Program-made: the position numbers and the translations under genes
Shown: in pieces, positions 29,290-54,772 of the stretch
Position numbering within the stretch: the first letter of the stretch is position 1
Layout: every line of letters starts with the position of its first letter
The notes under the pieces: model-generated
What the model was told of the DNA's origin: nothing
Database searches by the model: none
Seen by the model: the letters and a program-made list of their open reading frames with translations, nothing else
Assembly (NCBI GenBank): GCA_020632925.1
Contig: JACKER010000007.1
Span: forward strand, 116,910 to 180,909
DNA length: 64,000 bases
Direction of reading: 5' to 3'
DNA from: Alphaproteobacteria bacterium
Lineage (GTDB): Bacteria; Myxococcota_A; UBA796; GCA-2862545

Positions 29290-30752
29290 GGGGGGCTCCG
29301 GCGCAGCCCGAGGGAGGCGAGCTTGCGCTTCACGGTGTTCCGGTCGACCTCGAGCGCCCGCGCGGTGGCGCTGATGTTGCCGCCGGTCGCCGCCCACGCG
29401 TTCCGCACCGCCTGCTGCTCGGCGTCCGCCAGCACGTCGGCCAACGGGCGCACGCCATCGGCGGTCGGCGTCGACGCGGGACGTATCCCGCGGAGCTCGG
29501 GCGACAGGTCCTCGAGCGTGACCCGGCCCTCGGCGAACACGCACCAGCGCACGACCTCGGCCCGCAGCTCGCGTACGTTCCCGGGCCAGCGCCAGGCGGC
29601 GAGACGCGCCCAGGCGTCGGCGGCGACGGGCAGCTCGGGGCGGCCCTGCTCCTCGAGGAAGCGCGCGACGAGCGCGGGCAGGTCGTCGACGCGCTCGCGA
29701 AGCGGCGGCACCTGCAGCACCACGCCCGACAGGCGGTACCAGAGGTCCTCGCGGAAGCGCCCGCGGTCCACCTCCGCCTTCAGGTCCCGATGCGTCGCGC
29801 ACACGAGGCGCACGTCGACCTTCACGTCCTGTTCGCCGCCGAGGCGCCGCAGCTCGCCCTCCTGGAGCACGCGGAGGAGGCCGACCTGCACCCGCGCGGA
29901 GAGCTCGCCGACCTCGTCGAGGAAGAGCGTGCCCTTGTGCGCGAGCTCGAACAGGCCCCGTCGGCGGGCGCTGGCGCCGGTGAACGCCCCGGCCTCGTGG
30001 CCGAAGAGCTCACTCGCGAGCAGCCCGTCGTCGAAGGCGCCGCCGTTGCAGGCCACGAACGGCCCCTTCGCGCGGGGGCTCGCCTCGTGGATCGCGCGTG
30101 CGACGAGCTCCTTGCCGGTCCCGGTCTCGCCGTGCACCAGCACCGGCACGTCGGTCGGCGCCACCCGGAGCATCCGCGAGCGCAGCGTGCGCATCGCCGC
30201 CGACTCGCCGACCATCCCGTGGCGCACGACCCCGTCCGCCCGCAGGCGCACGACCTCCTCGCGCAGCGCGCGGATCTCCGGGAAGCCCTCGACCGGCATG
30301 CGCACGACGCGCACGGGGTGCGGGTGGGGCACGGGCACGAAGCGCGCGGGCACGACCTGCAGCATGCGCGCGGGCAACAAGCCGCTCTCGACCAGGATCA
30401 CCCACAGGGTCTGCGCCTGCGGCGTACCGGCGGAGAGCAGCACGTCGAGCCCCTCGGCGCCGCGCAGCTCCTCGACCAGCGGCCGCACCGCGGCGAAGAG
30501 CTGCTCGTGGTCCGACGGGTCGGTCAGCGGCACCGCGCGCAGCTCGACGGTGCAGCCGAGCGCCTCGGCCTCGCGCTTCAGCTCCCGACCGCCGCGGAGG
30601 CCCGCCTCGGGGACCAGCACCAGGACGCGATAGTAGCGCTCGTGGTCCAGCAGGCGCAGCACCGGGCCGCGGTCCTGCTCGGGGCGAGGGCCGTGGTGGG
30701 CGGGCGGCGGGCCCGCGCCGCGATCGGTCCAGGTGAGGAGCGTGCGGCTCAC
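29286..30752 (-). CDS. rtcR: RtcR-like sigma54-dependent regulator (N-terminal CARF-like domain + AAA+ + HTH)
   Basis: GTG start overlapping the TGA of the MVP gene (GTGA). The N-terminal 170 aa align with the E. coli RtcR CARF domain: DHEQLFAAVRPLVEELRG and LDVLLSAGTPQAQTLWVILVESGLLPARMLQV, compare DYLIHITTGTHVAQICWFLLAEARYLPARLIQ. This is followed by GETGTGKE, GAFTGA, and a C-terminal HTH. The upstream part of the 1265-aa ORF is junk. Confidence 0.75.
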   Translation of the reverse strand: MSRTLLTWTDRGAGPPPAHHGPRPEQDRGPVLRLLDHERYYRVLVLVPEAGLRGGRELKREAEALGCTVELRAVPLTDPSDHEQLFAAVRPLVEELRGAEGLDVLLSAGTPQAQTLWVILVESGLLPARMLQVVPARFVPVPHPHPVRVVRMPVEGFPEIRALREEVVRLRADGVVRHGMVGESAAMRTLRSRMLRVAPTDVPVLVHGETGTGKELVARAIHEASPRAKGPFVACNGGAFDDGLLASELFGHEAGAFTGASARRRGLFELAHKGTLFLDEVGELSARVQVGLLRVLQEGELRRLGGEQDVKVDVRLVCATHRDLKAEVDRGRFREDLWYRLSGVVLQVPPLRERVDDLPALVARFLEEQGRPELPVAADAWARLAAWRWPGNVRELRAEVVRWCVFAEGRVTLEDLSPELRGIRPASTPTADGVRPLADVLADAEQQAVRNAWAATGGNISATARALEVDRNTVKRKLASLGLRRSPP

Positions 30753-33253
30753 GCCTCGTCGTTGCCCTTGATGCGCTCGAGGACGCCGGCCAGCGGGGTG
30801 CCCGCGAACATCTTGTCCACGACCTCCACGAAGTTCCGGCCGCCGACGATCTGCTGCACGCTGAGCGCCTCGGCGACCTTCACCAGGGTCTCCTCGTGCG
30901 ACAGGGCGAGCAGCGCCTCGGAGAACCCGCCCTGGGCGGCCTCGAAGCGCGCGACCACCGCGTCCACCTCGGCCTTGAGCGCGGCCAGCTTCAGCTCCTG
31001 GTCCACGCGGGAGAGCGCCTGACGCTGCTCGTGGGTCGCCTTCTCGCGGACGAGCTGCCCCTCGTGCTCGACGGCGATCGCGGCCACCTTCGCGGTGTTG
31101 GCCTCCTGCCGCCGCTGGTGCTGCTGGACCTCGCCCGCGAGCGCCGCCAGCGCGACCGAGAGCTTGGCCTTCGCCTGCTCGATCTCGAGCTCTGCCAGGC
31201 GGGTCTGCGTCGCCGTACGGGCCTCGGCCATGGAACGCGCGATGCCCTCCTGCTGCTGCGTGACCTCGAGGCTGCGCTCGGCGCGGAGCAGCGTGATCGA
31301 GGACTCGACCGCCTCGTGCTGGGCCTGGGCGAGGAGCGTCGCGATGCGGTCGTCGTCGATGCCGACCTCCAGCACCTCCACGTCCGTCACCACCATCCCG
31401 TTCTCCGCGAAGCGCATGCCGGGGCGCGGCGAGCCCTCGGACGCCTTGCCGAGGATGCCGTCCCGCACGATGTCGACGGCCTGCTTGTAGAACTGCTCGA
31501 CCGGCAGCTTTTTGATCTGGCCCTTGAGCACGCTGCGGACGTGGTCGCAGAGCAGCTTCACGTAGTTCTCGACCTCGAACCACTTCTCGGACTCGCCCGT
31601 GAAGTTCACGCGGAGGCTGTACTCGAGCGTGATGCGCACGTGGTCGGCGGTCTCGACCTCGCAGGTGTCGCCGACGCGGTTGTTGAGCACCCGCAGGAAG
31701 GACGTGCGCAGCAGCCGGTCGGTGGACTTGGGGCGGCCGGTCGACAGCTCGAGGATCTCGAGCGTCTCGTCGTACTCGAGCAACAGGTTGCGCGGGCCGA
31801 CCTCGACGCGGCGGTTGCCGCTCTTGTCGACGACCATCACCGCGTACCCCACCCAGACGTTGACGTTGGGCACGCCCTCGAACTTGGTGTTGAACACGAT
31901 GGTGCGGGGCTGGGTGTACGAGCTGCCGCGCTCGACCACGTCGCCGACCATCGCGGGCACGTCGCGGCTCACGGCGGAGGCGTCCATGGCGACCGACTGC
32001 GACGCGGGCAGCGGCGCCTTGCCCCCGCGCTGCTGCTGCTGGACGCGGTTCGCGCGCTGGTAGTCGCCCTCGCTGACCACCCCGGCGCGCGTGGTGGGCG
32101 CGGCGTCCGCGAGGCGGCGGAGCTGGCGGTTGTACGTCAGCGCCTCGTCGTTGCCCGGGTACCAGGTCTCGCACTCGCGGTCGGACAGGATGCGGCGGAC
32201 GATGACCTCGTCGACGGGGTTGGGCAGCAGCATGAGCGGCCCGCGCGCCATGTGGATGGCGCCCGTCTTGCGGTTCATCACGTAGCGGGCCTCGCCGGCG
32301 GGCACGGCGGTCGCGAAGTGCTTGTCGCGCCCGTCGTAGCGGACCAGGCTGTGCTCCTCGCGCGGGAAGTAGATGGCGGCGTCCTTGCCCGTCAGGAAGA
32401 TCTCGTCGCCTTCCTTGTACGCCTTCCCACCGTCCTCGTAGGGCGCGATGATCTTGATGTGGAGCCCCTGGATCTCGTTGAGCTCCACGGCGCGGAACTT
32501 CCGGTGCTGGTCCTTCTGGATGAAGGTCTCGGTAGGCTCGGGGAACACGACCTGCGGGCCGCGCTCGTACCGCTTCTTGCCGTTCTGATCCACCAGGATG
32601 CAGTACTCGAGGCGCTCCAGGGTGAGGGCGTCGCGCACGTACAGCCCGTCGTCGTCGGCGACCACCCCGACACCGGTGGGCGGGATGTAGAAGCTCACGT
32701 CGGTGCCCTTGATGATGAGCAGCTTGCCGACGGTCAGGTCCTGCGGAGCCTGCGCGACGGGCGCCTCGGGAGCGCCGTCGCCGGCGGGCTTGATGACGGC
32801 CTTGCCCCAGTTCTTGCGCGCCTCGTCCTCGTTGTAGACCCGGACCAGCAGGTACTGGTTGGACCGGAGGTGGTGGCCCTGGACGAGCTTGACGATCTGC
32901 CCGGGCCACAGCGCGAAGCTGCACGGGCCGTTGATGTTGATCTTGCGACCGACCTCGAGATCGGGCGACGGGTAGACGCCGCCGAACGGCGGGTGGTCGT
33001 TCTTCGTCGAGGGGTTCTTGAGGGTGAGGTAGTAGCCCTCGGGCGCGATGGCGATCTGCTGCACGGCCTCCTCGAGCCCGCACGGCTCGAAGTGCTTGGT
33101 GCCGGCGTCGAAGCGGACGGGCCGCTCCTGGGCGGTCGGGTTGATCACCGTGGGCCCGGTGTACGTCTTGACGATGCCCTTGGTGACGTCCTGCATGTAG
33201 GCGTACTCGCTGGGCGCGAGCACGAGGTCCCGCTTCTGCGCGCGATCGTCCAT
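30749..33253 (-). CDS. major vault protein (MVP) homolog, full length (N-terminal repeats, shoulder, cap-helix coiled coil)
   Basis: 834 aa starting at MDDRAQKRDLVLAPSEYAYMQDVTKGIVKTYTGPTVINPTAQERPV, compare human MVP [39 protein letters not shown]. Shoulder region LELSTGRPKSTDRLLRTSFLRVLNNRVGDTCEVETADHVRITLEYSLRVNF, compare [50 protein letters not shown]. C-terminal Ala/Glu/Gln-rich coiled coil of about 150 aa. RBS GGGAGAACCACG. Confidence 0.8.
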   Translation of the reverse strand: MDDRAQKRDLVLAPSEYAYMQDVTKGIVKTYTGPTVINPTAQERPVRFDAGTKHFEPCGLEEAVQQIAIAPEGYYLTLKNPSTKNDHPPFGGVYPSPDLEVGRKININGPCSFALWPGQIVKLVQGHHLRSNQYLLVRVYNEDEARKNWGKAVIKPAGDGAPEAPVAQAPQDLTVGKLLIIKGTDVSFYIPPTGVGVVADDDGLYVRDALTLERLEYCILVDQNGKKRYERGPQVVFPEPTETFIQKDQHRKFRAVELNEIQGLHIKIIAPYEDGGKAYKEGDEIFLTGKDAAIYFPREEHSLVRYDGRDKHFATAVPAGEARYVMNRKTGAIHMARGPLMLLPNPVDEVIVRRILSDRECETWYPGNDEALTYNRQLRRLADAAPTTRAGVVSEGDYQRANRVQQQQRGGKAPLPASQSVAMDASAVSRDVPAMVGDVVERGSSYTQPRTIVFNTKFEGVPNVNVWVGYAVMVVDKSGNRRVEVGPRNLLLEYDETLEILELSTGRPKSTDRLLRTSFLRVLNNRVGDTCEVETADHVRITLEYSLRVNFTGESEKWFEVENYVKLLCDHVRSVLKGQIKKLPVEQFYKQAVDIVRDGILGKASEGSPRPGMRFAENGMVVTDVEVLEVGIDDDRIATLLAQAQHEAVESSITLLRAERSLEVTQQQEGIARSMAEARTATQTRLAELEIEQAKAKLSVALAALAGEVQQHQRRQEANTAKVAAIAVEHEGQLVREKATHEQRQALSRVDQELKLAALKAEVDAVVARFEAAQGGFSEALLALSHEETLVKVAEALSVQQIVGGRNFVEVVDKMFAGTPLAGVLERIKGNDEA

Positions 33254-33275
33254 CGTGGTTCTCCCGTGGTTTCGG

Positions 33276-34823
33276 CTAACGGGTGATCGCGACACCGGCG
33301 ACGAGCCCGAGGACGCCCCCCAGCGCGAGCCCGACGGAGAGGCCGACGGCGACCCAGCCCGCCGGGATGCCGCGTGGTTCCGTGGAGATCACGCCCTGCT
33401 CGCGGAGGAAGTCGCCGAGGGAGCGGGTCTCGTTGAAGGAGCGCTCGATCTTGAGCAGTCGCTCGGCGGTGCGCGGCCGCTGGCTGATCGTGAGCGCGAG
33501 CTGGGGGAGGAGCTGCGTGAAGTCCTCGCGCATCGACGGCCCGAACAGCCGGCGGCGGAGGATGGCGCCGGTGATCGTGCGGACCTCGGCGGCCCCGTCG
33601 AGGTCGGGGCAGTAGCGCAGGACGATGCCCTCGACGATGGTGAGGTTGCGCAGGACGACGAACAGGTCGGACTGGGCGCTCATGTGGTAGCTGGCGCCGA
33701 CGCGCATGCCGGCGATGAGCTGCTCGGTGATGCGGTGGTCGCCGATCCGCCCACCCTCGCCGCCGGCCGCGAGGACGGCGCGCAGATCCCGCTTGAGGGC
33801 GACCTGGTCCACCCCCGGCTCGGGGCGGAAGACCTGGACGAAGGCCTCGACGGCGTCGTCGTAGCGACGGGAGGCCTGGCAGAAGACGACCTCGAGCATC
33901 TTGTCGCGCAGCGCCCTCGGGAGCTGGGCGTGCAGGCCGAAGTCGACGAGCCCGATGCGCCCCGCGGGCTCGAGGATGAGGTTGCCGGGGTGGGTGTCGC
34001 CGTGGACGAAGCCGTGCTCGTAGCACATGGAGAGCTGAAGCCGGAGCATGGAGCGGCAGAAGGCCTCGGGGTCGTAGCCGAGGGCCTGGAGCGCCTGGGG
34101 TGTGCCGACGTCGGAGAGCTTGGTGCCCTCGAGCCAGGACATGACGAGCAGGTGCGGCGTACACAGGTGCGAGACGACGGTGGGGACGACGAACTCGGGC
34201 AGCGTGGTGAGGACCTCGTCGAACCGGTCGATGGCGCGGGCCTCGGCGAGGAAGTCGAGCTCACCACGGGCGCGGGCGGCGTACTCCTCGGCGACGCGGT
34301 GGACCATGGCGCGGTGGTAGGGCGGCACGAGGCGGTCGATGAAGCCGGAGAGCGTGAGGAGCGTGTCGAGGTCGGACAGCAGGGACTCCTCGAGCCCCGG
34401 GCGCTGGACCTTGACGGCGACCTCGAGGCCTCCGTCGCGCAGCGTGGCTCGGTAGACCTGGGCGATGGAGGCGGCGGCGACGGGGGACTCGCCGAAGGAC
34501 GCGAAGACCTCGTCGAGGGGGCGTCCGAGCTCGCGCTCGACGATCTGGCGCGCCGTGTCGGTGGGGAAGGGCTCGACGGAGGACTGGAGCTTCCCGAGCT
34601 CTTCGGTGAAGGTCTCGCCGAACAGATCGACCCGCGTGGAGAGCATCTGGCCGAACTTCACGAAGGTGGGGCCGAGGCGCTCGAGGGTCCTGCGGAGGCG
34701 GACGGCCGTGTCGGCGTCGCTGCGCGCGGGCTCGTCGGGCTTCTCGGTGGGTGACTCGGTGAGCCAGCCGAGGCCTTCCTCGAGCAGGACCTTCGTGATC
34801 GTGGCGACGCGTGCGAGCTTCAT
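33276..34823 (-). CDS. UbiB/ABC1 (ADCK) family atypical protein kinase with C-terminal TM segment
   Basis: The start MKLARVATI lies within the 1171-aa ORF; the upstream part is junk. Motifs TFVKFGQMLSTRVDLFGETF, AVKVQRPG, HGDTHPGNL, VDFG. C-terminal hydrophobic helix. It is 22 nt upstream of the MVP start. Confidence 0.75.
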   Translation of the reverse strand: MKLARVATITKVLLEEGLGWLTESPTEKPDEPARSDADTAVRLRRTLERLGPTFVKFGQMLSTRVDLFGETFTEELGKLQSSVEPFPTDTARQIVERELGRPLDEVFASFGESPVAAASIAQVYRATLRDGGLEVAVKVQRPGLEESLLSDLDTLLTLSGFIDRLVPPYHRAMVHRVAEEYAARARGELDFLAEARAIDRFDEVLTTLPEFVVPTVVSHLCTPHLLVMSWLEGTKLSDVGTPQALQALGYDPEAFCRSMLRLQLSMCYEHGFVHGDTHPGNLILEPAGRIGLVDFGLHAQLPRALRDKMLEVVFCQASRRYDDAVEAFVQVFRPEPGVDQVALKRDLRAVLAAGGEGGRIGDHRITEQLIAGMRVGASYHMSAQSDLFVVLRNLTIVEGIVLRYCPDLDGAAEVRTITGAILRRRLFGPSMREDFTQLLPQLALTISQRPRTAERLLKIERSFNETRSLGDFLREQGVISTEPRGIPAGWVAVGLSVGLALGGVLGLVAGVAITR

Positions 34824-45926: not shown

Positions 45927-46029
45927 GGCGTCCTCGTAGCTCGCGCAGAAAGTTCTGCAGGGTCCGCGACCCGATCTCGTGGGAGGGACGAGGCGCCACG
46001 TCCGGCGCCCTCCGACCCAGGAGGAAGCG

Positions 46030-47442
46030 ATGTCCCCGACCCCCCTCGTCACGTTCTGGGTGGCCCTGTCCACCCCCGCGAGCGCGCAGTCCGTGTTCCT
46101 CCACTACGACTTCGACGGCGCGGGCGTCACCTCGGCGGGCCACGTCTTCGCCGACGACTCGGGGAACGGCAACGACGGGGTGCTCGTGGACAACGGCACG
46201 CTCGACAACGGCGCCTACGTGACCAGCCCGGCGGCCTTCGGGCAGGCGTGGAACGACCCGGGGGAGGGGAGCCTGGCCGACGGCGACCGGGTGGACCTGT
46301 CCGTCCCGTACACCCCCGACGCCTCGACGCCGTGGACGGTGTCCTTCTGGATGGACATGTACGGCGGCGCGGTCCGTCCGCTCTTCGACCCCGCCACGCA
46401 GGACGACGAGCTCTATGTGCGCGCCGACAGCGTGAGCGAGGTCAGCTTGCGGCTCGGCGGCCAGGGAACCGTGATCTGGGACACGGCGGGCATCGTGAAC
46501 CAGCGGTCCTTCGCGCATTACGCGCTGGTCGCCGATCCCGGCGGCATCGTGGGCGTGGACCAGGACGGCGACGGGCTGGACGACCACGTCGCGCTCTACG
46601 TCGACGGCGTGCTGATGGCGACGACCTCCACGGGCCTCTCCAGCTACGCGACCCCGGTGACCATGACCGCCATCGGCGACGGGAGCGCGAACAACGTCTT
46701 CGCGCGCGAGTCGGCCGGGATCTACGACGAGCTCTGGGTGGTCGACGGGTTCGCGATGGGCGCCGGCGCCGTCTGGCAGCTCCACAAGCGCAACCACGTG
46801 TGCTGGTCCACGAGCGACGGCGACGGGGTCCCGGACGACTGCGACGTGTGTCCGTCGGAGGATGCGTCTCACTGCGACCCCGACGCGAACGGGTGCATCG
46901 ACGACGCCGACAGCGACGGGCTGCTCGACTGCGAGGAGGACCTGAACGGCGACGACGTCTACGACGAGGACACCGACCTCGACGGCGTCCCGGACTACCT
47001 GGACGACGACGACGACGGCGACGGCATCCCCACGCTCGACGAGGACCCGGACGCCGACGGCGACTACCTCGAGCACGACAGCGACAGCGACGGCATCCCG
47101 AACTACCTCGACGACTGGAACGCGCGGATCTCGGCCTCGGTCACCGCCGGTGTGCCGAGCGAGCTCGTGGTCACCGACGCGCCCCCGGGCTCGACGGTCG
47201 TGTTCCTCCGCGCGTGGCAGCCCGGCTTCTGGTACCAGTGTTTCCCCGGTCCCCTGGGGCCCTGCCTCGGCCTGCGCAACCCCACCGTCGTCGACGTGGT
47301 CACCACGCCCGAGAGCGGCATCGCCACCACCACGTTCACGCTCCCCGCCCAGACCGCCGGCCTCGTCGGCTACGTCCAGGCCGCCATCTCCGACCCGTCG
47401 CAGAACCAGGTGACCCAGATCCTCCAGGTGACCGTCCAGTAG
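46030..47442 (+). CDS. secreted protein with LamG/concanavalin-like domain and thrombospondin type-3-like Ca-binding Asp repeats
   Basis: Start at MSPTPLVTFWVALSTPASAQS (Sec signal) with RBS CAGGAGGAAGCG. The C-terminal half carries multiple DxDxDGxxD motifs (DSDGDGVPDDCD, DDDGDGIPTLDEDPDADGD). Confidence 0.6.
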   Translation: MSPTPLVTFWVALSTPASAQSVFLHYDFDGAGVTSAGHVFADDSGNGNDGVLVDNGTLDNGAYVTSPAAFGQAWNDPGEGSLADGDRVDLSVPYTPDASTPWTVSFWMDMYGGAVRPLFDPATQDDELYVRADSVSEVSLRLGGQGTVIWDTAGIVNQRSFAHYALVADPGGIVGVDQDGDGLDDHVALYVDGVLMATTSTGLSSYATPVTMTAIGDGSANNVFARESAGIYDELWVVDGFAMGAGAVWQLHKRNHVCWSTSDGDGVPDDCDVCPSEDASHCDPDANGCIDDADSDGLLDCEEDLNGDDVYDEDTDLDGVPDYLDDDDDGDGIPTLDEDPDADGDYLEHDSDSDGIPNYLDDWNARISASVTAGVPSELVVTDAPPGSTVVFLRAWQPGFWYQCFPGPLGPCLGLRNPTVVDVVTTPESGIATTTFTLPAQTAGLVGYVQAAISDPSQNQVTQILQVTVQ

Positions 47443-47445
47443 CGT

Positions 47446-48360
47446 TCATCGACTGCGGGTAGAATGCGCGCCATGGTCGCAGAACGTGGCGTTCACGAGC
47501 GGTTCTCGCGGCGGCTCACGTCGGATGGCCGTGGCCCGTTCGACCGCCGCCCTCAGCTCGTCATCGCCGATCTGCCGGTAGTACCTGAGCATCGTGGCGA
47601 CCGAGTGCCCGGTCACTGCCGCCGCAACGCTCGGATCGACGCCGGAGCGGAGCATCCGGGTGACGACCATGCGACGGAGCCCGTGGGGTGTGAACCGGCG
47701 TACGCCCGCCGCGTCGCACGCCTCCAGCAGTCGCCGCTCCAGCGCCTGGACGGGTGCGACGGTCGTTCGTCCTCTGCCGCGGCGCCCGGCCCCTTCCAGG
47801 GCGAACAGGGGAGAATCGTCCACGCTCGACCGCCCGCGCAACAGCTCAGCGGTGCCTCCGTCGAGCGGGACCCGGCGTCGCCCTGTCTTCGATGCGCCTA
47901 CGGCCCGCCCGAACACGACCCAGCCGGCGTGCTCGTCGAGGTCCGACGCTCGCAGGCGCACGACCTCACCCACTCGAGCCCCCGTCCGAGCCATGACCAG
48001 CGCCGCCAGCCACCAGTCGTCCCGTGGCATGGCGTCGATGGCTCGGAGTGCCTCCTCGAGGGTCGGCGTCCGGTGGTTGTGGGTGTGCTGCTGCCCGTCG
48101 ATGCGGACGCGCGGCACCCGGAGTCCGAGCGCTGCGCCGAGGAGGCCGGTCCGCTGTGCCCAACGGAAGGCCATCGCGGCCACCCGGAGCTCGTACGCGA
48201 TGGTGCGCGGTGCGATGCCTGCCTGCCGACGGCGATCGACGATGGGTGTGAGGTCGGCCGTCGCGTCGTGGATCTCGATGTCCGGCTCGGCGAGCAACAT
48301 CCGCGCCACTCGGGCGTACCCGACCTTGGTCCCGTCGGCGAGATCGACCCGTGCCTGCAT
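47446..48360 (-). CDS. tyrosine-type site-specific recombinase/integrase
   Basis: C-terminal catalytic region RFTPHGLRRMVVTRMLRSGVDPSVAAAVTGHSVATMLRYYRQ (H-x-x-R ... Y). ARTGARVGEVVRLRASDL contains box I Arg. The start is chosen at MQARVDLADG and is uncertain. Confidence 0.65.
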   Translation of the reverse strand: MQARVDLADGTKVGYARVARMLLAEPDIEIHDATADLTPIVDRRRQAGIAPRTIAYELRVAAMAFRWAQRTGLLGAALGLRVPRVRIDGQQHTHNHRTPTLEEALRAIDAMPRDDWWLAALVMARTGARVGEVVRLRASDLDEHAGWVVFGRAVGASKTGRRRVPLDGGTAELLRGRSSVDDSPLFALEGAGRRGRGRTTVAPVQALERRLLEACDAAGVRRFTPHGLRRMVVTRMLRSGVDPSVAAAVTGHSVATMLRYYRQIGDDELRAAVERATAIRREPPREPLVNATFCDHGAHSTRSR

Positions 48361-48474
48361 GTACGCGAGCCATGGAGGCAGGATGAAGTGGAACACGAGG
48401 CTCTCCAGGGTCGGCGTGAACAGTCGTTCGCCACACGACACCGGAGCAGCTGGAGGCCATCCGCGCTGAACGGG

Positions 48475-49659
48475 GAATATGAAGAGTATCACCCGTTGGG
48501 GACGACCTCCTGGTGGGCGACCGACGGCGGGACGGAGGTGTCGGCCAAGAGGTACCGATACACGGGGAAGGAACGGGATGACGAGACGGGGCTCGGGTAC
48601 CACGGTGCCAGATACTATGCGGCTTGGCTGGGGAGGTGGGAGAGGCCTGATCCGATAGGACTAGAGGGCGGTGGGGTGAACAGGCTCGCCTACGTCCGCA
48701 ATCGTCCCGTCGCCCTTCGCGACTCTACGGGTCTAGAACCTGAGCCGACGCTCTCAATCACAGACCTCTACAATGCAGCAGCCACCAACGATCTCAGCAG
48801 CCTTCCCGATTCATTCGTTGGGGCGCAAGACGTCATCGATCTGATCTCGATGCTGGACGCCGCGCCAACCGAGCGAGCCGCCTACCGTGCGGATCTGGAC
48901 GGAGAGCTGAGCGGCCAGGCTTCGGAGTATTCTCAGGTCGACCGAGAGAAGGGTATCGCAGCCCTCCTAATGGTTGATTCCCGTGGCCTAGCCGTTTCTG
49001 ACGCGTCCCTGTCCGAAGTGTTTCAGGGGTCCGCATATTCGGAAGGCAACCGTGGTGGTTCAGTCGCAGACGCGCAATACGATGCAGCCGCCGACTCCAT
49101 GCCATCCCCAGAGATCACTGATCCCAGTGCCGTGGGCCCGTGGCTTCGGACGATTGTCCGAGGCCATACGCATGGCGATCCATCGCATCAGCCCAAACGC
49201 AGGAGAGCCAAGGTTTTTGGCGCATCAGGGGGCGATCTCTACAACCACTTCACTTTCGGTGCGGAAATGCGGTTCGTTGTGGACGATAGAAATCCCGCGG
49301 AAGGAGGTACGGTCTTGGTTCTTTCGAACGCCGGAAGTGTGTATGAACAACTCGGCGGGGATACGAGTTCGTCAAGGCAGCGGCGCGTCGTCCATCGCAT
49401 GCAAGTGCGCGTAAAGAGTATCGTGGGCTCACTCGCCGATATTAACGCCAGAGATGCCGCAACGCTCCTTGCGAATACCGTTGGTGGACGTGTATACGCA
49501 AGCGACAGTTCACCGCAACTGGGACGCTTCGAGGTCGCACGGCCATATGAGCAACTCTCGGAGGCGTCGGAGCAGGTGAGTGATGCCATCGCTAGGTACG
49601 CCACCACGATGCAACGGGCTCAGCTGCGTATCCAACGGATTCAGGGAGCAGGTCGGTGA
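48475..49659 (+). CDS. orphan RHS repeat-associated core C-terminal fragment + variable toxin domain (5'-truncated rhs-CT module)
   Basis: EYEEYHPLG...AKRYRYTGKERDDETGLGYHGARYYAAWLGRWERPDPIGLEGGGVNRLAYVRNRPVALRDSTGLEP is the conserved end of RHS/YD cores (RYYDP...GRW..DPIGL). It is followed by about 330 aa of unrelated sequence that fits a polymorphic toxin tip. The upstream core is missing. Possible internal GTG start at 48538. GC is visibly lower than in flanking DNA. Confidence 0.55.
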   Translation, partial: EYEEYHPLGTTSWWATDGGTEVSAKRYRYTGKERDDETGLGYHGARYYAAWLGRWERPDPIGLEGGGVNRLAYVRNRPVALRDSTGLEPEPTLSITDLYNAAATNDLSSLPDSFVGAQDVIDLISMLDAAPTERAAYRADLDGELSGQASEYSQVDREKGIAALLMVDSRGLAVSDASLSEVFQGSAYSEGNRGGSVADAQYDAAADSMPSPEITDPSAVGPWLRTIVRGHTHGDPSHQPKRRRAKVFGASGGDLYNHFTFGAEMRFVVDDRNPAEGGTVLVLSNAGSVYEQLGGDTSSSRQRRVVHRMQVRVKSIVGSLADINARDAATLLANTVGGRVYASDSSPQLGRFEVARPYEQLSEASEQVSDAIARYATTMQRAQLRIQRIQGAGR

Positions 49660-50249
49660 GTTCGTGGGAGTCCACTACTGTCGCAGTCTCTGTGGTTGTC
49701 GATGGCCGCGCGGTTGTTCGTGTTGAACACGACAAATGCATGGTCATGGAGGCACGGAGTGTTCCACGATTCATGGATGACCCACTTGCTGCGGTAAATG
49801 TGACGCGTGTATTGCCATTCTTCAATGGCATGCGCGGTTCGTTTGTGACTCTGGGCCTCTTGTCGCCAGACTCCCACAATTCAGCCCGAGAGGTATCGCT
49901 GGCAGTTGCGCAGCTTGGAATGCGGCATGGATGGCTAGATGGTGTGGCATGGCTCAATGTAGCTCCAGTCATGCAGCAGTGTGACTGGGGAGCGTTGTAC
50001 GGGACACCACCGGCCATCCTCTTTGGCACCGCCACACGCCGACAGCGCGCGGCACTCCTGACGATACTGGAGGCGTCGCTCGTCTCACGACGACCTGGTT
50101 TGGCATTCGAGCAGCTCGACTGGGGGATCGAGATTCATCACGGGACACAGCACCTTCCGCCATTTTGGGACTGTCGCCGGCAGGATGATGCGTGCTCAGA
50201 CGTCATGGCCATGCTTGGCCTGCTTCAGGATCCTCCGTGGATTCCATAG
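49656..50249 (+). CDS. putative cognate immunity protein of the orphan RHS toxin
   Basis: GTG start overlapping the toxin TGA (GTGA). 197 aa. Low GC with normal composition. Position typical of rhsI. No recognisable domain. Confidence 0.4.
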   Translation: MSSWESTTVAVSVVVDGRAVVRVEHDKCMVMEARSVPRFMDDPLAAVNVTRVLPFFNGMRGSFVTLGLLSPDSHNSAREVSLAVAQLGMRHGWLDGVAWLNVAPVMQQCDWGALYGTPPAILFGTATRRQRAALLTILEASLVSRRPGLAFEQLDWGIEIHHGTQHLPPFWDCRRQDDACSDVMAMLGLLQDPPWIP

Positions 50250-50454
50250 GGACACCGCTGCTAATGCGGCATCACTCGGGACCGAGTGAACGCGCCAGAC
50301 GAATATCACCTATTCTCCATACTTTACGATTGGACCCGGCGGGCTTGAAGTTGCACCGCGGAGGACGCGGAGAGCGCGGAGGTCGGACGGAGGTAGAGCA
50401 GATGCTGCTCGTGACTGCGCACCTACCAGGTCTCCAGCGGACGACGTCGTGAGG

Positions 50455-50500
50455 GCCCTGTTCTCCGCGTCCTCCGCGTCCTCCGCGGTGAATCCACCGA
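50455..50500. repeat. direct repeat copy 1 (about 45 bp: CTGTTCTCCGCGTCCTCCGCGTCCTCCGCGGTGAATCCACCGAG)
   Basis: About 93% identical to the copy at 50607..50655. Both lie between the low-GC islet and the ECF sigma gene. Confidence 0.5.
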
Positions 50501-50606
50501 GAACCCCACGCACCACATCTCTACGCAACGATCTCGAGCGCCTGCTGGTGACCAACAGGCCCGCCATGGGCGACAGGGCTGCTCCTCCCCCTCTACTGTC
50601 GGGATG

Positions 50607-50655
50607 TGCCCGTTCTCCGTGTCCTCTGCGTCCTCCGCGGTGAATCCACCGAGCA
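50607..50655. repeat. direct repeat copy 2 (CCGTTCTCCGTGTCCTCTGCGTCCTCCGCGGTGAATCCACCGAG)
   Basis: See copy 1. It ends about 45 nt upstream of the ECF sigma start codon. Confidence 0.5.
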
Positions 50656-50701: not shown

Positions 50702-51199
50702 ATGAGCGACTCCCCCGTCGACGAGGACGTCTACGCCCTGCTGCGCTCGCTCGCGCGACGCATCCACGCCGAGCGCGGAGGTGGGCGGCACTCGCTGCAG
50801 CCGACGGAGCTCCTGCACGAGGCCTGGGCGCGGATCGCGGACGGGAACGCCCACTACCGGTCGCGGGAACACTTCGTCGCGCTCGCGGCGCGCGCCATGC
50901 GGCACGTGCTCGTGGACCGTGCCCGCGCCAGGCTGGCGGACAAGCGCGGTGGCGGTGCCGTGCCCACGACCCTGCGCGCCGTGGGCGTCAGCGACGACCC
51001 CGTGGACCTGCTCGCCGTCGACCAGGCGCTCACCGAGCTCGAGGCCAACGACGCCCGCGCCGCCGAGGTCGTGCAGCTCCGCGTCTTCGGCGGGCTCACG
51101 GTGGAGGAGGTCGCGGCGCACCTCGGGCTCGGCGAGCGAACGGTGTACGACAGCTGGCGCTTCGGGCGCGCGTTCCTCGTCCTGCGCCTGGGCGCGTAG
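50702..51199 (+). CDS. ECF-type sigma-70 family RNA polymerase sigma factor
   Basis: Region 2 (LLHEAWARIAD), region 4 (EVVQLRVFGGLTVEEVAAHLGLGERTVYDSWRFGRAFL). Confidence 0.8.
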   Translation: MSDSPVDEDVYALLRSLARRIHAERGGGRHSLQPTELLHEAWARIADGNAHYRSREHFVALAARAMRHVLVDRARARLADKRGGGAVPTTLRAVGVSDDPVDLLAVDQALTELEANDARAAEVVQLRVFGGLTVEEVAAHLGLGERTVYDSWRFGRAFLVLRLGA

Positions 51200-51211
51200 T
51201 ACCGTTGGGTC

Positions 51212-54200
51212 GTGGAGCCGGGTGCTTTCCAGCGTGCGCGTGACCTGTTCGCCCGCCTGGTCGACGACGACCCCGGTGAGCGGCTGGCCCGGCTGCACGC
51301 GACCTGTGACGACCCGGTCGTGCGCGGGCTCGTGGAGGGGCTGCTCGCGGCGGATGCGCAGAGCCGGCTGCTGCGGACCACGGCGGTCGGCGTCGGCGTG
51401 CTCCCAGCACCCGCGAGCGGCGTCTTCGGCACCTGGCGGCTCCACACCCAGGTCGGGACCGACCCGTACACGCGGACCTGGCTCGCGACCAGCGGCGACG
51501 GCGTGGCGGCGGTGCAGGTCATCGAGCGCTGGCCCGCGCTGAGCGAGACCCAGCGGGCACACCTCCGGCTGCGCCTCTCCGAGCTCGCGGCCATCGACCA
51601 CCCCGGCCTCCCGGGGCCGTACCGCCTGGTGGAGAGCAGCCAGCAGGCCGCTTGGGTCGGGCCTCCGCCGCAGGGGACGCCGGTGGCGCCCGACGAGCTC
51701 CGGGGGGTGGAGCTCCCCCGGTTCGTCGCCCAGATCGCCGAGCTCGTGGGCGCGCTGCACGAGCAGGGGTTCGCTCACGGCGGGCTCGCGGTCGCGTCCT
51801 TCCGGCGGCGCGGCGAGCGCTTCGTCGTCGACGGGTACGGCCCCCGGTCCGTGCTGGCCGCCGCGGGCGAGGCCACCGATCTCGCCGACCTCCACGCCCT
51901 GCTTCGACGGTGCGCCCTGCTGGCCGACGGGCGGTTCCGCGCGGGCATGGAGGCGCTGGCCGCGGAGGACGACGTGGGTTCGGCGGCGACGCTGGCCGCG
52001 AGACTGCGTCGGATCGAGTTCGGCACGGACACCGCCGACGTGCCAGCGCCGACGGCGCCTGGTTTCGTCGCCCACCTCCGGCAGCTGAACTTCACGGGGG
52101 ACCACGCGGGGGTGCTGGCGGAGGTCGAGGAGGCACGTGCGCGGGAAGGGGAGCAGCCGGCGCTGGTCGACCAGGAGGTGGTCGTCGCGCTGTGCTGGCT
52201 GCTGCGCATGGAGGAGGCGGAGACCCTCTCGGCGTCGGTGCTCGCGCGCACTCGCGCCGAGGGCGACGCGCTGGGCGAGGTCCAGATCCGCAGCGTCCGG
52301 AGCTTCCTCGCCAGTCACCGCGGTGACCACCAGGCGGGTCTGGGAGAGCTGGACGCGGCGTACGCGGCGCTGCACACCCTCGAGGAGGTCCCGCCCGGCG
52401 TCGAGGGCGCCCTGCTGCGCACGCGAGCGGGCGTCGTCGGTCCCGCGGGTCGGCATCGCGCGGCGCTGCGCGATCGTCGCCGGGCCGCGGACCTGCTGCT
52501 CGCGACGGAGACCCGGGGGCACCGCTCGCGTGGCGCCTTCCTCCGCGCCCAGCTGCTCCTGCAAGTGGGTGACCCGCTGGAGGCGGAGATCGCCGTCTCG
52601 GCCGCGGAGGCGCTGTTCGTCGCGCTCCCCGACCCCGCCGGTCAGGCCGACGCCCGCTACCTGCTCGCGAAGATCCACCTGCAGCGCGGCGCGAACGAGG
52701 CCGCCCTCAGCGCCGCCGAGGGATCGATCGAGGTCCTCGAGCGGCTCGGTCGCCCGCGGTTCGCGGTCAGCGCCATGATCACCGCCGCCATCGCCGCCCG
52801 GCGCGCCGGGCTCCCGGACCGCGCCAGGAGGTGGGCGGAGCGTGCGGGGGCGCTGTCCGAGCTCGACTGGGAGCGCGCGTCGATCGGGCTGCAGCTCGCG
52901 ATCCAGCGGCTCGTCGCCGGGGAGGTCGACGCGGCGCGGTCGCACGTCGAGCGGGCTCGGGGGACGGGCGGCCCGCCTGAGGCGGTGGCGGGCTGGGTGG
53001 CGCTGATGGAGCTGGCGTGCGCCGACCCCCATGATCCGGCGTGGAGTCAGCGCTTCCGGGCGGTGGCGGAGCGGCTGCGCCGCGACGCGGTGGCCGACGA
53101 GGACGTGGTGGACGTGCTGCTGCGCCTGACGGACGCAGCCCCGGCCGAGCTCCGACCCGTGGTGCTGGAGCTCGCCCTCGATCGCTGCACAGTCGCGACG
53201 GTCGGCGGCGCCGAGGCGCGGTGTCGACGCCGTCTGGTCGCGCTGGTCGCGGAGGGCGCCAGGCCCGTGATCGACGGGCTGGTGGTCGAGGAGACGCTCG
53301 GCCGCGGTGGGATGGGCGTGGTGCTCGGCGCGCGAGACCTGGAGTCCGGGGAGCGCGTCGCCATCAAGGTGATCGAGGGCGCGCTCCTCGATCGGGCCAC
53401 CGTGGAGAGCGAGATCCGCGCGGTCGCGGCGCTGGAGCACCCAGGCGTGGTCGCCGTCCGTGGCATGGGCACGCTCTCGGAGGTCGCCGCGCGCCTGGCG
53501 GGCCTGCCGGTGGGCGCGCCGTGGTTCGCGATGGAGCGGATCGACGGCGGATCGCTCGTTGCGGAGGTCGGGCGCACGGACGCTGCAGGACTGGTCGCCG
53601 TCGCGGAGCAGGTCCTGCGGACGCTCGCGCACGTCCACGCCCGCGGCCTGGTCCACCTCGACCTCAAGCCCGCCAACCTGCTGCGCGACCCCGAGCGGGG
53701 CGTGGTCCTCACCGACTTCGGCATCTCTCGCGCACGCACGGGGGAGGCGGGCGCGTTCGCGGGAGGGACCCCGGGCTACTGGGCGCCCGAGCAGGTCCTG
53801 TCGGGGGTGCTCGGGCCGTGGACCGATCTGTACGCCCTGGGGTGTACGCTGTGGGCGCTGTGCTCGGGCCGCCCCCCGCGCAAGCTCCACGGCGACCCGC
53901 TCCGCCCGTTGCCGGACACCGTCCCGCCGAGCCTCGCCCGCTGGCTGTCGCGGATGATCGAGCTCCACCCCGAGCGTCGGTTCCGTCGGGCGACCGACGC
54001 GCTCGCCGCCCTCGGTCGGGAGAGGACGCCCGCAGCTCCTCGGTCCTCGTCGCGCCCCCCGGTCACGCCGCGCCTCCTGCTGCTGCGAGAGCCGCCGATG
54101 GTCGGACGCCAGCGGCTGCGCGAGGAGCTCCTGGAGCTGGCGCGGGCAGCTGCGCCCCGGATCCACCTCGTGGGACCGTGGGGTGTCGGGAAGCGAAGGC

Positions 54201-54772
54201 TCGCGCGCTGGGTGGTCGAGGAAGGGCGCGAGGCGGGGTGGCTCGCCGATCCGGGCGCTCCCGACGGGTTCCCGGCGTGGCTCACGATCGCCCGCGACGG
54301 TGAGGGTCTCGTGGTGGGGGACATGACCGACGACGAGCTCGAGACGCTGGCCCGGTCGGGACTCGGGCTCGGACCCGCGCTGACCGACGTGTTGGTCGAG
54401 CGGGCGGCAGGGCGCCCCCGCTTCCTGGTGGCGGCGGCGGAGCTCGAGGTCCGTCGTGGCAACCTCCTGCCCGGTACCCGCGGCATCACCCGGATCCCCG
54501 ATCCACCCGATCCACTGCCGTCGACCCCCGACGAGCTCGCCGCCGCCTGGCTCGACCTCGCGGTGGGCCCGCGTCGGGGCGACCGCGCCGTCCAGCTGGA
54601 GGAGGCGGCCGCGAGGGATCCGATCCACCTCGACGACTGGCAGGCGGCCTGCGTGGCGCGAGATGCCGAGGGTGATCCTTCCTTCCTGCAAGGCCTCGTG
54701 GGGGCGGGTCTGCTCGTCCCCCGAGGTCTGGCCTGTTGGAGCTGGCGCGCGCGGTGGACCGTGCTAGGGTGA
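51212..54772 (+). CDS. large multidomain Ser/Thr protein kinase (N-terminal sigma-associated/TPR-like region, kinase domain, C-terminal P-loop NTPase-like region)
   Basis: 1186 aa. Kinase core GRGGMGVVLGA...VAIKV...HLDLKPANLL...DFGIS...APE. C-terminal LVGPWGVGKRRLARW (Walker A-like). Begins 13 nt after the ECF sigma stop. Confidence 0.7.
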   Translation: MEPGAFQRARDLFARLVDDDPGERLARLHATCDDPVVRGLVEGLLAADAQSRLLRTTAVGVGVLPAPASGVFGTWRLHTQVGTDPYTRTWLATSGDGVAAVQVIERWPALSETQRAHLRLRLSELAAIDHPGLPGPYRLVESSQQAAWVGPPPQGTPVAPDELRGVELPRFVAQIAELVGALHEQGFAHGGLAVASFRRRGERFVVDGYGPRSVLAAAGEATDLADLHALLRRCALLADGRFRAGMEALAAEDDVGSAATLAARLRRIEFGTDTADVPAPTAPGFVAHLRQLNFTGDHAGVLAEVEEARAREGEQPALVDQEVVVALCWLLRMEEAETLSASVLARTRAEGDALGEVQIRSVRSFLASHRGDHQAGLGELDAAYAALHTLEEVPPGVEGALLRTRAGVVGPAGRHRAALRDRRRAADLLLATETRGHRSRGAFLRAQLLLQVGDPLEAEIAVSAAEALFVALPDPAGQADARYLLAKIHLQRGANEAALSAAEGSIEVLERLGRPRFAVSAMITAAIAARRAGLPDRARRWAERAGALSELDWERASIGLQLAIQRLVAGEVDAARSHVERARGTGGPPEAVAGWVALMELACADPHDPAWSQRFRAVAERLRRDAVADEDVVDVLLRLTDAAPAELRPVVLELALDRCTVATVGGAEARCRRRLVALVAEGARPVIDGLVVEETLGRGGMGVVLGARDLESGERVAIKVIEGALLDRATVESEIRAVAALEHPGVVAVRGMGTLSEVAARLAGLPVGAPWFAMERIDGGSLVAEVGRTDAAGLVAVAEQVLRTLAHVHARGLVHLDLKPANLLRDPERGVVLTDFGISRARTGEAGAFAGGTPGYWAPEQVLSGVLGPWTDLYALGCTLWALCSGRPPRKLHGDPLRPLPDTVPPSLARWLSRMIELHPERRFRRATDALAALGRERTPAAPRSSSRPPVTPRLLLLREPPMVGRQRLREELLELARAAAPRIHLVGPWGVGKRRLARWVVEEGREAGWLADPGAPDGFPAWLTIARDGEGLVVGDMTDDELETLARSGLGLGPALTDVLVERAAGRPRFLVAAAELEVRRGNLLPGTRGITRIPDPPDPLPSTPDELAAAWLDLAVGPRRGDRAVQLEEAAARDPIHLDDWQAACVARDAEGDPSFLQGLVGAGLLVPRGLACWSWRARWTVLG

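Follow-up and report, generated by a model that had tools for sequence, protein, structure and literature searches.

A foreign-looking islet of about 3 kb, in which a tyrosine recombinase gene lies beside the detached end of an RHS toxin gene and a small overlapping open reading frame (ORF), was found within the 64-kb stretch of DNA analyzed here (the window). In window coordinates, its features and those next to it are as follows.

47446 to 48396, − strand: tyrosine recombinase (integrase) gene, 316 aa as annotated (MCB9683552.1), with its stop codon at 47446-47448
48397 to 48468: spacer, about 72 nt long, that separates the integrase start codon from the start of RHS homology and from which the two genes diverge
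48469 to 48500, + strand: cassette boundary and candidate recombination site, GGGAATATGAAGAGTATCACCCGTTGGGGACG, encoding (G)EYEEYHPLG
48478 to 48738, + strand: RHS repeat-associated core end ("tip"), YEEYHPLG ... KRYRYTGKERDDETGL ... DPIGL ... DSTGL
48739 to 49659, + strand: C-terminal domain (CT) of 306 aa plus stop codon after the RHS cleavage motif, the presumed toxin/effector payload
49656 to 50249, + strand: 197-aa ORF, a putative immunity gene, whose GTG start overlaps the stop codon of the toxin gene (GTGA)
50250 to 50353: AT-rich tail, the right-hand end of the islet (GC of 0.60-0.63, reaching at least 0.70 after about 50550)
50354 to 50653: GC-rich repeat in three clustered copies, between the islet and an ECF sigma gene

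The earlier note on this DNA had estimated by eye a drop in GC content from 48470 to about 50330, to about 55-60% against about 70% in the flanks. Computation in 300-nt windows bore this out, giving a GC content of 0.56-0.62 over approximately 48600-50400 versus 0.70-0.78 in both flanks, and the bin 49001-50000 (GC of 0.576) was the sole 1-kb bin below 0.65 in the 64 kb. A uniform profile, which would have spoken against a foreign origin, was thus not found, and GC by codon position falls in the islet genes as well: GC at third positions (GC3) is 0.91-0.98 in host genes, compared with 0.83 in the integrase gene, 0.74 in the RHS core end, 0.60 in the CT, and 0.59 in the 197-aa ORF, and the integrase gene is therefore mildly atypical too. 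On the left, a LamG-like host gene (GC3 of 0.97) ends 3 nt from the integrase stop codon. The junction of LamG-like gene, integrase gene, and tip is no assembly artifact, since window positions 47374-48608 recur with 100% identity in an independent ENA contig (L049, 1235 nt). On the right, the GC-rich repeat has one forward copy (50354-50386) and two reverse copies (50446-50501 and 50598-50653), with 88% identity in the 56-nt direct repeat and 93% in the inverted arms; it gave three matches in the window versus 0 expected, and the region folds with a z score of −4.1. These repeats were seen in none of the related loci and so are probably not part of the system. No flanking direct repeats (att sites) of at least 11 nt were found around the islet, and Rfam, promoter, and terminator scans yielded nothing relevant. 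A tRNA was considered as the integration target and rejected, the sole tRNA in the window being 37 kb away.

The integrase matched PF00589 (E value of 4.9e-16) and the phrog_1 integrase family (E value of 1.8e-41), and its matches to Xer-like NCBIfam models were all far below the cut-offs. Compared with over 60 homologues, which span 285-326 aa, it is full length, and its PF00589 catalytic domain carries the R-K-H-R-H-Y residues: in alignment A2, K170, R241, and H264 are invariant, and R141 (within ARTGAR), H238, and Y273 are nearly so. Its viral relatives were only distant ones, with 27-31% identity. In the spacer upstream of its start codon (48397-48468), we found no σ70-like promoter and no similarity to the equivalent spacers of three related loci (L052, L054, and L050). 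A conserved motif considered for the integrase-to-site spacers, GTGGTCGC(C)AC(Y)CCC, occurred in three loci only and was unconvincing.

The ORF at 48463-49659 on the + strand matched the full profile (1-76) of TIGR03696, Rhs_assc_core, at residues 9-91 (E value of 2.9e-22; 79 bits versus a cut-off of 32.5). The onset of the RHS core end is abrupt, at about 48469-48478, and the two autoproteolysis motifs with Asp, DPIGL and DSTGL, are preserved. The tip is 54-66% identical to the tips of six related loci (L052, L054, L019, L011, L018, and L050) and, in alignment A6, retains the residues of all 12 invariant columns, among them D85, which is the second motif's Asp; DPIGL, too, has its Asp, in a column that is not invariant. 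Neither tblastn with a 1222-aa RHS/Tc protein nor regular expressions for YD and DPxGL revealed further RHS-like sequence in the 64 kb, the fragment itself had no match to Pfam RHS_repeat, and no full-length rhs gene lies in the 47 kb upstream or the 14 kb downstream of the islet. TcA, TcB, and an RHS shell or cocoon are all missing from the window. With the YD/RHS repeat shell and the N-terminal secretion or delivery region absent, the RHS sequence is thus a fragment and not a full member of the family. These results agree with the earlier note, which had described a core end beginning mid-way with no upstream YD repeats and had quoted a peptide that is indeed present in the window's translation. 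Its own alternative, that the 5′ part of an RHS gene had been mistaken for the antisense of the integrase gene, did not hold: the upstream part of the long + strand ORF (47464-48460) is the antisense of the PF00589 integrase, and no RHS body was found. The boundary motif occurs once in the window. A search for a core-site architecture at the motif, with inverted arms and a spacer, gave nothing convincing; the candidate core around TGAGGAG had 4-7 of 8 matches in its inverted arms and was at best suggestive.

The tip and the CT form an intact frame of 398 codons, the CT being encoded in DNA of 59% GC. The CT had been put at 330 aa; we measured 306 aa after DSTGL. It was also said to be unrelated to anything recognized, and with this our searches concur: its only match among 5.8 billion word-indexed clusters and in an exhaustive phmmer search of 1.84 billion representatives was itself (P0001, MCB9683553.1), and nothing matched in Pfam, NCBIfam, PHROG, PADLOC, or PDB even at an E value of ≤10. 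Two motif assignments in the CT, E...HTH...SGGD as JAMM-like and GHTHGDPSH as the metallo-beta-lactamase HxHxDH motif, were dropped, as neither had profile support. The length of the 197-aa ORF and its GTGA overlap were as the earlier note had given them (GTG at 49656-49658, TGA at 49657-49659), and a GGGAG sequence lies 7 nt upstream of the GTG. Its GC by codon position (0.68/0.47/0.59) resembles that of the CT, and by our own estimate an open frame of this length would arise by chance with a probability of about 1e-3 per frame at the given composition. Its product had no homologue among the 5.8 billion clusters, no family or PDB match at permissive thresholds (Pfam, NCBIfam, PHROGs, PADLOC, and PDB), and no self match in a protein collection that includes both neighboring NCBI gene products. 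Single-sequence AlphaFold models of the CT (pLDDT of 37.6, unusable) and of the 197-aa protein (pLDDT of 37.3) gave no confident fold. Since neither protein has homologues or a usable structure model, the terms toxin and immunity are positional here: by its place behind the cleavage motif the CT is presumably toxic, and by its place behind the CT the 197-aa ORF would confer immunity.

The NCBI annotation gives a 423-aa protein from a GTG at 48391, which would suit a stand-alone toxin-antitoxin-like pair, its product made from an internal start and acting inside the producer. A precedent exists in an orphan Rhs of Salmonella (PMC7043789), and in both orphan tips of the related locus L007 the motif is preceded by the same conserved ATG leader. 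Nevertheless, the annotated N terminus is antisense to the 5′ end of the integrase gene and no promoter-like or terminator-like site was found, and we regard such a pair as extremely unlikely.

The pairing of integrase and tip recurs. Among 20 distinct loci with relatives of the integrase (45-63% identity), 13 had an RHS tip or remnant within 1 kb of the integrase gene, and three of the seven negative loci came without flanking sequence; no integrase below 40% identity had an adjoining RHS tip. Every tip starts at the common codons (E)EY[HF]P[YL]G, in the same column of alignment A6. Tips starting at this motif lie beside integrase homologues in L002, L005, L007 (three copies), L009, L011, L013, L018, L019, L020, L023, L050 (two copies), and L052 to L055, and the motif regular expression had no match elsewhere in the loci scanned. 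In some loci, the tip is co-directional and begins 71-187 nt after the integrase stop codon; in L052 and L054, it lies upstream and divergent, 120 nt away, in a geometry like that of the window; and in L050 and L007, toxin-antitoxin or Abi cargo separates the integrase from the divergent tips. At least six contigs (L002, L008, L013, L020, L023, L053, and L055) end 26-72 nt past the motif, as expected if the block is multicopy or polymorphic.

The tip-plus-CT frames are also intact in six relatives, and small ORFs occupy the equivalent position in six related cassettes (83-160 aa in five, up to 419 aa in L052). By their sequences, related cassettes look like toxins: the CT of L018 has a borderline EndoU nuclease match (E value of 1.3e-4), and that of L052 contains a HELTH motif. 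Furthermore, Tc-type toxin genes, TcA-like or, in L007, encoding an SpvB/TcdB/RHS protein, lie approximately 2-8 kb from the integrase gene in five loci (L002, L007, L013, L051, and L052).

The fixed boundary resembles an att junction, and in L007, L050, and L051 the integrase gene adjoins AbiE, HEPN/NTase toxin-antitoxin, and restriction-modification genes. An element whose integrase targets the RHS core end would leave such a scar, the insertion having disrupted an RHS gene and displaced its 3′ end, the tip. Across the integrase gene, however, the window has no RHS body but a LamG-like gene 3 nt away, and the same is true of L011, L009, and L052. In addition, outward-facing tips flank the integrase on both sides in L007 and L050, which is not the product of a simple insertion. 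We therefore consider an att-site scar distinctly unlikely. The same pairing at the same codon in many unrelated bacteria argues that the recombinase probably swaps tips and is not their accidental neighbor.

Three sets of relatives bear on such an exchange. L052 and L054 encode an identical integrase protein and differ on the integrase side by 2 mismatches in 2488 nt, whereas their tips differ by 39 mismatches in 243 nt and their CTs and downstream ORFs are unrelated (322 plus 419 aa versus 374 plus 237 aa). The switch from 99.9% identity to divergence maps inside GGGGTATGAGGAATACCA, and the breakpoint lies no more than about 14 nt from the truncation codon. L007 carries a full-length gene for a 2999-aa SpvB/TcdB_midN/RHS protein in addition to two orphan tips, and all three share a sharply bounded block of about 60 nt at approximately 100% identity that starts at the motif; downstream of the block, identity falls to 60-77%. 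The full-length gene has its site in the opposite orientation to the integrase-proximal orphan, so that inversion would swap tips in frame. Finally, in L005 and L006, an integrase-bearing segment of 5 kb is seen in both orientations; the inverted repeats that bound it are 147 nt long and begin at the motif. A crossover at the motif itself was rejected for this pair, the actual crossover lying in the distal 83 nt of the inverted repeat, where homologous recombination fits equally well.

The L005/L006 crossover, at the longest identical stretch, is just what homologous recombination predicts, and reactivation of orphan rhs genes by this route is documented for Salmonella and Escherichia coli (PMC3967940, PMC3150448). 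The window shows neither a partner gene nor a second site. The islet might thus be an ordinary orphan rhs-CT/immunity remnant that neighbors an integrase by chance and whose reactivation, if any, would be by RecA-dependent homologous recombination with a main rhs gene elsewhere. We think this unlikely in view of the adjacency in 13 of 20 distinct loci with a truncation codon that is always the same, the L052/L054 breakpoint within about 14 nt of that codon, and an identity block of only about 60 nt with sharp limits in L007. The earlier note had called the islet a classic orphan rhs-CT/rhsI cassette stranded next to an integrase. The cassette part stands, with a 5′-truncated tip bearing autoproteolysis motifs, a CT without detectable relatives, a small overlapping ORF, a foreign composition, and no full rhs gene in the window. 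The implied incidental neighborhood is not supported, because the pairing recurs in both orientations at the same codon and L052 and L054 exchanged there. Nor do the data support a classic orphan of the enterobacterial type, downstream of a main rhs gene and served by homologous recombination: the 64 kb hold no rhs gene, and the link with an integrase is recurrent.

We therefore consider it somewhat probable that the islet belongs to a recurrent module, a recombinase-associated store of swappable toxin tips. The module combines a gene for an Xer-like tyrosine recombinase with an adjoining RHS/Tc-type tip cassette, which comprises the last approximately 90 residues of the RHS core, including the autoproteolysis motifs, and continues into a polymorphic C-terminal payload and then a small ORF. 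The cassette start is always at the (E)EY[HF]P[YL]G codons, the beginning of the TIGR03696 domain, and the short motif sequence is our proposed crossover site of the recombinase. As a reserve of alternative toxin tips, the module would use site-specific recombination, through inversion or cassette integration, to fuse a stored tip in frame with the body of a full-length RHS or TcB-TcC gene that carries the same site. The islet's composition, the tip with its truncation point, the intact ORFs, the recurrence of the module, and the exchange breakpoint in relatives are seen directly in the sequences; that the recombinase catalyzes the exchange is what we infer from them. The window's own cassette is divergent and separated by about 72-82 nt from the start of the recombinase gene; with no full-length partner in the 64 kb, it is either a remnant or a reserve whose partner is elsewhere in the genome. 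In part, the boundary common to these loci may descend from a single ancestral junction; noncoding spacers would be diverged beyond recognition at 50% integrase identity.

Enterobacterial orphan rhs-CT/rhsI cassettes (Poole et al. 2011, PMC3150448; Koskiniemi et al. 2014, PMC3967940) share with the islet a 5′-truncated rhs with part of the core, a polymorphic toxin domain, a small immunity gene, and a GC content below that of the genome, and both are viewed as reserves of alternative toxins. However, the enterobacterial cassettes lie directly downstream of a full-length rhs gene, of which the window has none within 64 kb; their truncation points vary, in contrast to one fixed codon across many lineages; and they are mobilized by homologous recombination, whereas here a dedicated tyrosine recombinase is attached.

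The islet also resembles rAID-1 of Bacteroidales (Ross et al. 2019; 10.1101/471110; PMC12247911), in which an XerD-like tyrosine recombinase accompanies low-GC polymorphic-toxin cassettes with repeated intergenic motifs; recombinase and cassettes contrast in GC content in both, and both have been described as integron-like. The islet could accordingly be a defensive store of this type, with a recombinase that acquires cassettes, an immunity gene selected against competitors' toxins, and a tip and toxin that are carried along or decaying. Yet rAID-1 loci are arrays of co-directional orphan immunity genes without toxins, at least two such low-GC genes with a recombinase at least 44% identical to BF9343_RS08045 defining them (10.1101/471110), whereas the window has a single cassette that, though low in GC, is divergent and holds a toxin tip, and each related cassette carries an intact RHS tip and payload. 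No conserved intergenic motif was found. The 398-codon frame is intact here and its counterparts are intact in six relatives, and the tips, 54-66% identical, have kept all invariant residues, which speaks for their continued use as coding sequence. A defensive store therefore seems rather improbable to us. Moreover, rAID-1 was defined in Bacteroidales, whereas the hosts of the islet module are high-GC Myxococcota-like bacteria, in which the boundary lies inside coding sequence and each recombinase has one or two cassettes.

In shufflons and gene-altering inversions (R64 Rci/pilV; hsdS invertons; Milman et al. 2023, PMC9881135), a tyrosine recombinase likewise lies beside alternative 3′ segments that share a short repeat with an expressed gene. 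RHS or toxin genes had 0 occurrences in that survey of inversions. The design fits the architecture of L007, where inverted copies of the site would bound an invertible segment, and the two orientations of L005/L006. The window has a single motif copy and no inverted partner and thus does not itself display the shufflon design. As in integrons, the integrase gene points one way and the cassette abutting its 5′ side is transcribed the other way, but integrons have an IntI-type integrase and attC-bounded cassettes, whereas here the junction lies inside an ORF. Integron-integrase models scored far under their cut-offs (NF011946, 23.9 bits versus 435; TIGR02249, 22.7 versus 265), and no attC-like element was recognized in the window. 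Lastly, the hypervariable-region TcC proteins of Tc/ABC toxins have the same type of tip (EEYxPxG ... RYRYxGKExDxETGL ... DPxGL) with the payload after an aspartyl autoprotease motif, and TcA-like and SpvB/TcdB/RHS genes occur near relatives of the integrase; the TcA, TcB, and RHS shell of Tc complexes have no counterpart in the window. For TcC genes, downstream immunity genes or linked recombinases are not known. In the literature searched, with subscription journals sparsely covered, no description of recombinase-linked RHS tips was found, so that their absence from the record is unproven.

We tentatively suggest, as a possibility, that the module represents an undescribed programmed DNA rearrangement, a "toxin shufflon" or cassette system in which a clade of Xer-like recombinases, acting at a site at the RHS core start, would exchange the tips of giant RHS and Tc-type toxins as whole units of autoprotease, payload, and immunity gene; the one cassette stored in the window would then bring a payload with an entirely new fold. 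Its 306-aa payload and 197-aa partner, which have no detectable sequence relatives among 1.84 billion representatives and 5.8 billion clusters, respectively, are a candidate new toxin-immunity pair. Tc toxins are being explored for protein delivery, and an in-frame fusion site for arbitrary payloads on an RHS/Tc cage would be of practical interest. Homologous recombination with orphan cassettes is the usual explanation of how polymorphic toxins acquire and swap their payloads. If true, site-specific recombination by a dedicated enzyme at one fixed in-frame position would be a different, programmable route of payload exchange; it would tie RHS/Tc toxins to the logic of shufflons, integrons, and rAID loci and would account for the assembly breaks and the "stray" integrases found beside RHS fragments.

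Windowed composition analysis bore out the low-GC islet described in the earlier note. In 300-nt windows, GC fell to 0.56-0.62 across ~48600-50400, compared with 0.70-0.78 in the flanks, and when the entire 64 kb was divided into 1-kb bins, the sole bin below 0.65 was 49001-50000 (0.576). GC3 separated three classes, namely, host genes (0.91-0.98), the integrase (0.83), and the RHS core end (0.74) with the C-terminal domain (CT; 0.60) and the 197-aa ORF (0.59). The genes neighboring the islet are ordinary chromosomal genes, and an independent ENA contig is identical over the host-gene/integrase/tip junction. The main features are as follows:

Window 45979-47442, + strand: LamG/TSP3-repeat gene, host-like (GC3 0.97)
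Window 47446-48396, - strand: tyrosine recombinase (integrase) gene (PF00589, E=4.9e-16; PHROG integrase, 1.8e-41)
Window 47464-49659, + strand: long ORF, integrase antisense to ~48460, then RHS core end

The integrase, MCB9683552.1, is complete in length, as judged by >60 homologues, its catalytic residues are conserved in the alignment, and its stop lies 3 nt from that of the LamG/TSP3-repeat gene. The product of the latter gene is LamG-like (Laminin_G_3, 27.0 bits, slightly under the 27.6 cut-off), and its C terminus carries an Asp-rich repeat run resembling thrombospondin type 3 repeats, with 5 copies of a 31-nt repeat family at the DNA level. Antisense to the integrase (window 47464-48460, +), the reading frame is open for ~1 kb and runs on into the RHS tip. 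The resulting 731-aa ORF is spurious; the NCBI 423-aa product begins at GTG 48391, within this antisense stretch. The tip, i.e., the last ~90 residues of the RHS core, matches the complete TIGR03696 RHS core domain (E=2.9e-22), with the peptide order GEYEEYHPLG ... KRYRYTGKERDDETGL ... DPIGL ... DSTGL. Neither further RHS/YD sequence nor a full-length RHS gene was found in the 64-kb window, in agreement with the claim of a truncated core end without upstream YD repeats, and the motif at the tip start, (E)EY[HF]P[YL]G, occurs there in a single copy. The CT follows directly after DSTGL and comprises 306 aa, residues 93-398, instead of the 330 aa first estimated. The start of the 197-aa ORF overlaps the preceding stop (GTGA), as originally read, and is preceded at a distance of 7 nt by a Shine-Dalgarno sequence, GGGAG. 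Collectively, these data confirmed the initial observation, and the descriptive claims are solid.

Other elements of the window deserve mention. A GC-rich repeat with the core CCGCGGAGGACGCGGAGGACGCGGAG is present three times at window 50354-50653, once forward and twice in reverse; the copies include a 56-nt direct repeat of 88% identity, are confined to that one intergenic region of the window (against 0 expected by chance), and show strong folding (z=-4.1). This repeat, which is absent from every related locus, resembles a REP or MITE element. The next genes downstream of the islet form a sigma-kinase pair (window 50702-54772, +), in which a PF07638-type ECF sigma factor (E=1.8e-32) immediately precedes a 1186-aa protein containing a Ser/Thr kinase domain. 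At window 30749-33292 (-), an 847-aa protein contains Major Vault Protein domains (MVP_shoulder, E=6e-26; Vault_3, E=5.7e-8) and is a bacterial homologue of a eukaryotic vault component.

The view that the CT is unlike anything recognized held up, as its sole match among 5.8 billion clusters was its own record, MCB9683553.1 (labelled "MAG: Alphaproteobacteria bacterium"), and an exhaustive phmmer search against 1.84 billion representatives again returned only the CT itself. The 197-aa ORF had no match, itself included, in a collection containing both neighboring NCBI gene products. Searches of Pfam, NCBIfam, PHROGs, PADLOC, and PDB at permissive thresholds gave zero matches for either protein, and single-sequence AlphaFold models of both were unusable. 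On the basis of position, intact frames, and coding-like codon-position GC, the CT is a presumed toxin and the 197-aa ORF a putative immunity gene.

We collected the DNA surrounding relatives of the integrase and queried it with the window RHS tip. Of 20 distinct loci, 13 had a tip or remnant within 1 kb of the integrase, with 3 of the 7 tip-negative loci having too little flanking sequence, while zero tips were found in the searched contexts beside integrases of <40% identity. Every tip in the alignment starts at the same column, (E)EY[HF]P[YL]G, and the motif regex had zero matches elsewhere in the scanned loci. The reading of the islet as a stranded classic orphan cassette was therefore upheld only in part: the integrase appears not to be an accidental neighbor of the tip, and a chance orphan tip beside an unrelated integrase is improbable.

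Two geometries were observed. In nine loci (L005, L007, L009, L011, L013, L018, L019, L020, and L023), the tip is co-directional and lies 71-187 nt past the integrase stop, and L050 carries an additional degenerate co-directional tip starting ~100 nt past the integrase. In L052-L055, the tip is divergent, as in the window, and lies 120 nt upstream of the integrase start. Toxin-antitoxin or Abi cargo separates the upstream tips of L050 and L007 from the integrase; overall, the defence/addiction cargo between or beside integrases and tips comprises AbiEi/AbiEii, HEPN/nucleotidyltransferase, a restriction-modification pair, and PIN/MazE (L007 4429-5936; L050 9058-9829; L051 7412-9944; L011 5169-5815). 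One tip-less relative is followed directly past its stop by a 52-nt tandem repeat (L022 1643-1864; 4.3 copies, 92% matches). In relatives, each cassette has a tip, then a CT of ~230-330 aa, then a downstream ORF, whose length is 83-160 aa in five of these loci, 237 aa in L054, and 419 aa in L052. GC declines from integrase to tip to CT in 4 of the 5 cassettes measured. One CT gave a borderline EndoU-like match and another contains a HELTH motif. A stand-alone toxin-antitoxin-like pair is a very remote reading of the islet. In five loci, Tc-type toxin genes (TcA-like, or the SpvB/TcdB/RHS protein of L007) lie ~2-8 kb from the integrase. Beside integrase relatives, a TcA-like protein of ~3100-3200 aa is paired with a DUF2793 protein of 562-821 aa (L052 4299-13893; L051 1-4783), and the latter may be a conserved partner of those Tc-type complexes.

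Exchange at the motif is suggested by two loci encoding identical integrases, L052 and L054. Their DNA has 2 mismatches over the 2488 positions that run from the motif across the integrase and onward, against 39 over 243 in the tip, and neither the CT nor the downstream ORF of one locus is related to that of the other (322+419 aa versus 374+237 aa). The sequences first diverge in the His codon of GGGGTATGAGGAATACCA(T/C), at its third base. Beyond the cassettes, the distal flank is again common to both. The same sequence (L052 1-87 = L054 2275-2361) adjoins both distal ends, so the second cassette boundary may also be defined; this common sequence contains the start of a 109-aa gene and then an IS66 TnpB-like gene. 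In L007, two orphan tips and an SpvB/TcdB/RHS gene of full length (2999 aa) have in common a ~60-nt block of ~100% identity that includes the 16-nt palindrome CTTCCCATATGGGAAG; the first base of this block falls exactly at the motif, and identity past the block is just 60-77%. Because the copy in the full-length gene lies in the opposite orientation to that of the integrase-proximal orphan, an inversion would exchange the tips in frame. Contig ends lie 26-72 nt past the motif in at least 6 contigs, as expected of a multi-copy or polymorphic block.

A natural inversion polymorphism distinguishes L005 from L006, which are assemblies of one population: a 5-kb segment (an FG-GAP/MYXO-CTERM-like gene, a PDDEXK gene, and the integrase) occurs in both orientations. 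The segment is bounded by 147-nt inverted repeats starting at the motif (L005 1876-2022/6991-7137). The crossover lies in the distal 83 identical nt of the repeat and not at the motif, and the event is thus equally compatible with homologous recombination.

We propose that the module stores RHS/Tc toxin tips in association with a recombinase, which would act at the conserved sequence encoding the start of the core domain. A stored tip, with autoprotease motifs, payload, and immunity gene, would thereby be joined in frame to a full-length gene body with the same site, either by inversion where sites are inverted, as in L007, or through a cassette circle that is excised and then integrated. Exchange with the recombinase as the putative catalyst is moderately supported by comparative evidence; no convincing core site for the recombinase could be defined. 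The common tip boundary could be partly inherited from an ancestral junction; non-coding spacers would be saturated at 50% integrase identity. An att scar left by an element targeting RHS is a reading less probable still than chance adjacency.

Among known systems, orphan rhs-CT/rhsI cassettes (PMC3150448, PMC3967940) have content in common with the islet but lack its fixed boundary, its recombinase, and its location away from the main rhs gene. The rAID-1 loci of Bacteroidales (10.1101/471110, PMC12247911) likewise combine a recombinase with low-GC cassettes; however, they store immunity genes alone, in co-directional arrays, and we consider it unlikely that the islet is an rAID-like immunity store. 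By a membership test the islet is not an integron. Shufflons and gene-altering invertons resemble L007 in design, and a systematic survey of gene-altering inversions mentions neither RHS nor toxins (PMC9881135). No description of recombinase-linked RHS tips was found in the literature searched. The window cassette would be either a reserve, with its partner at another place on the chromosome, or a remnant left stranded.
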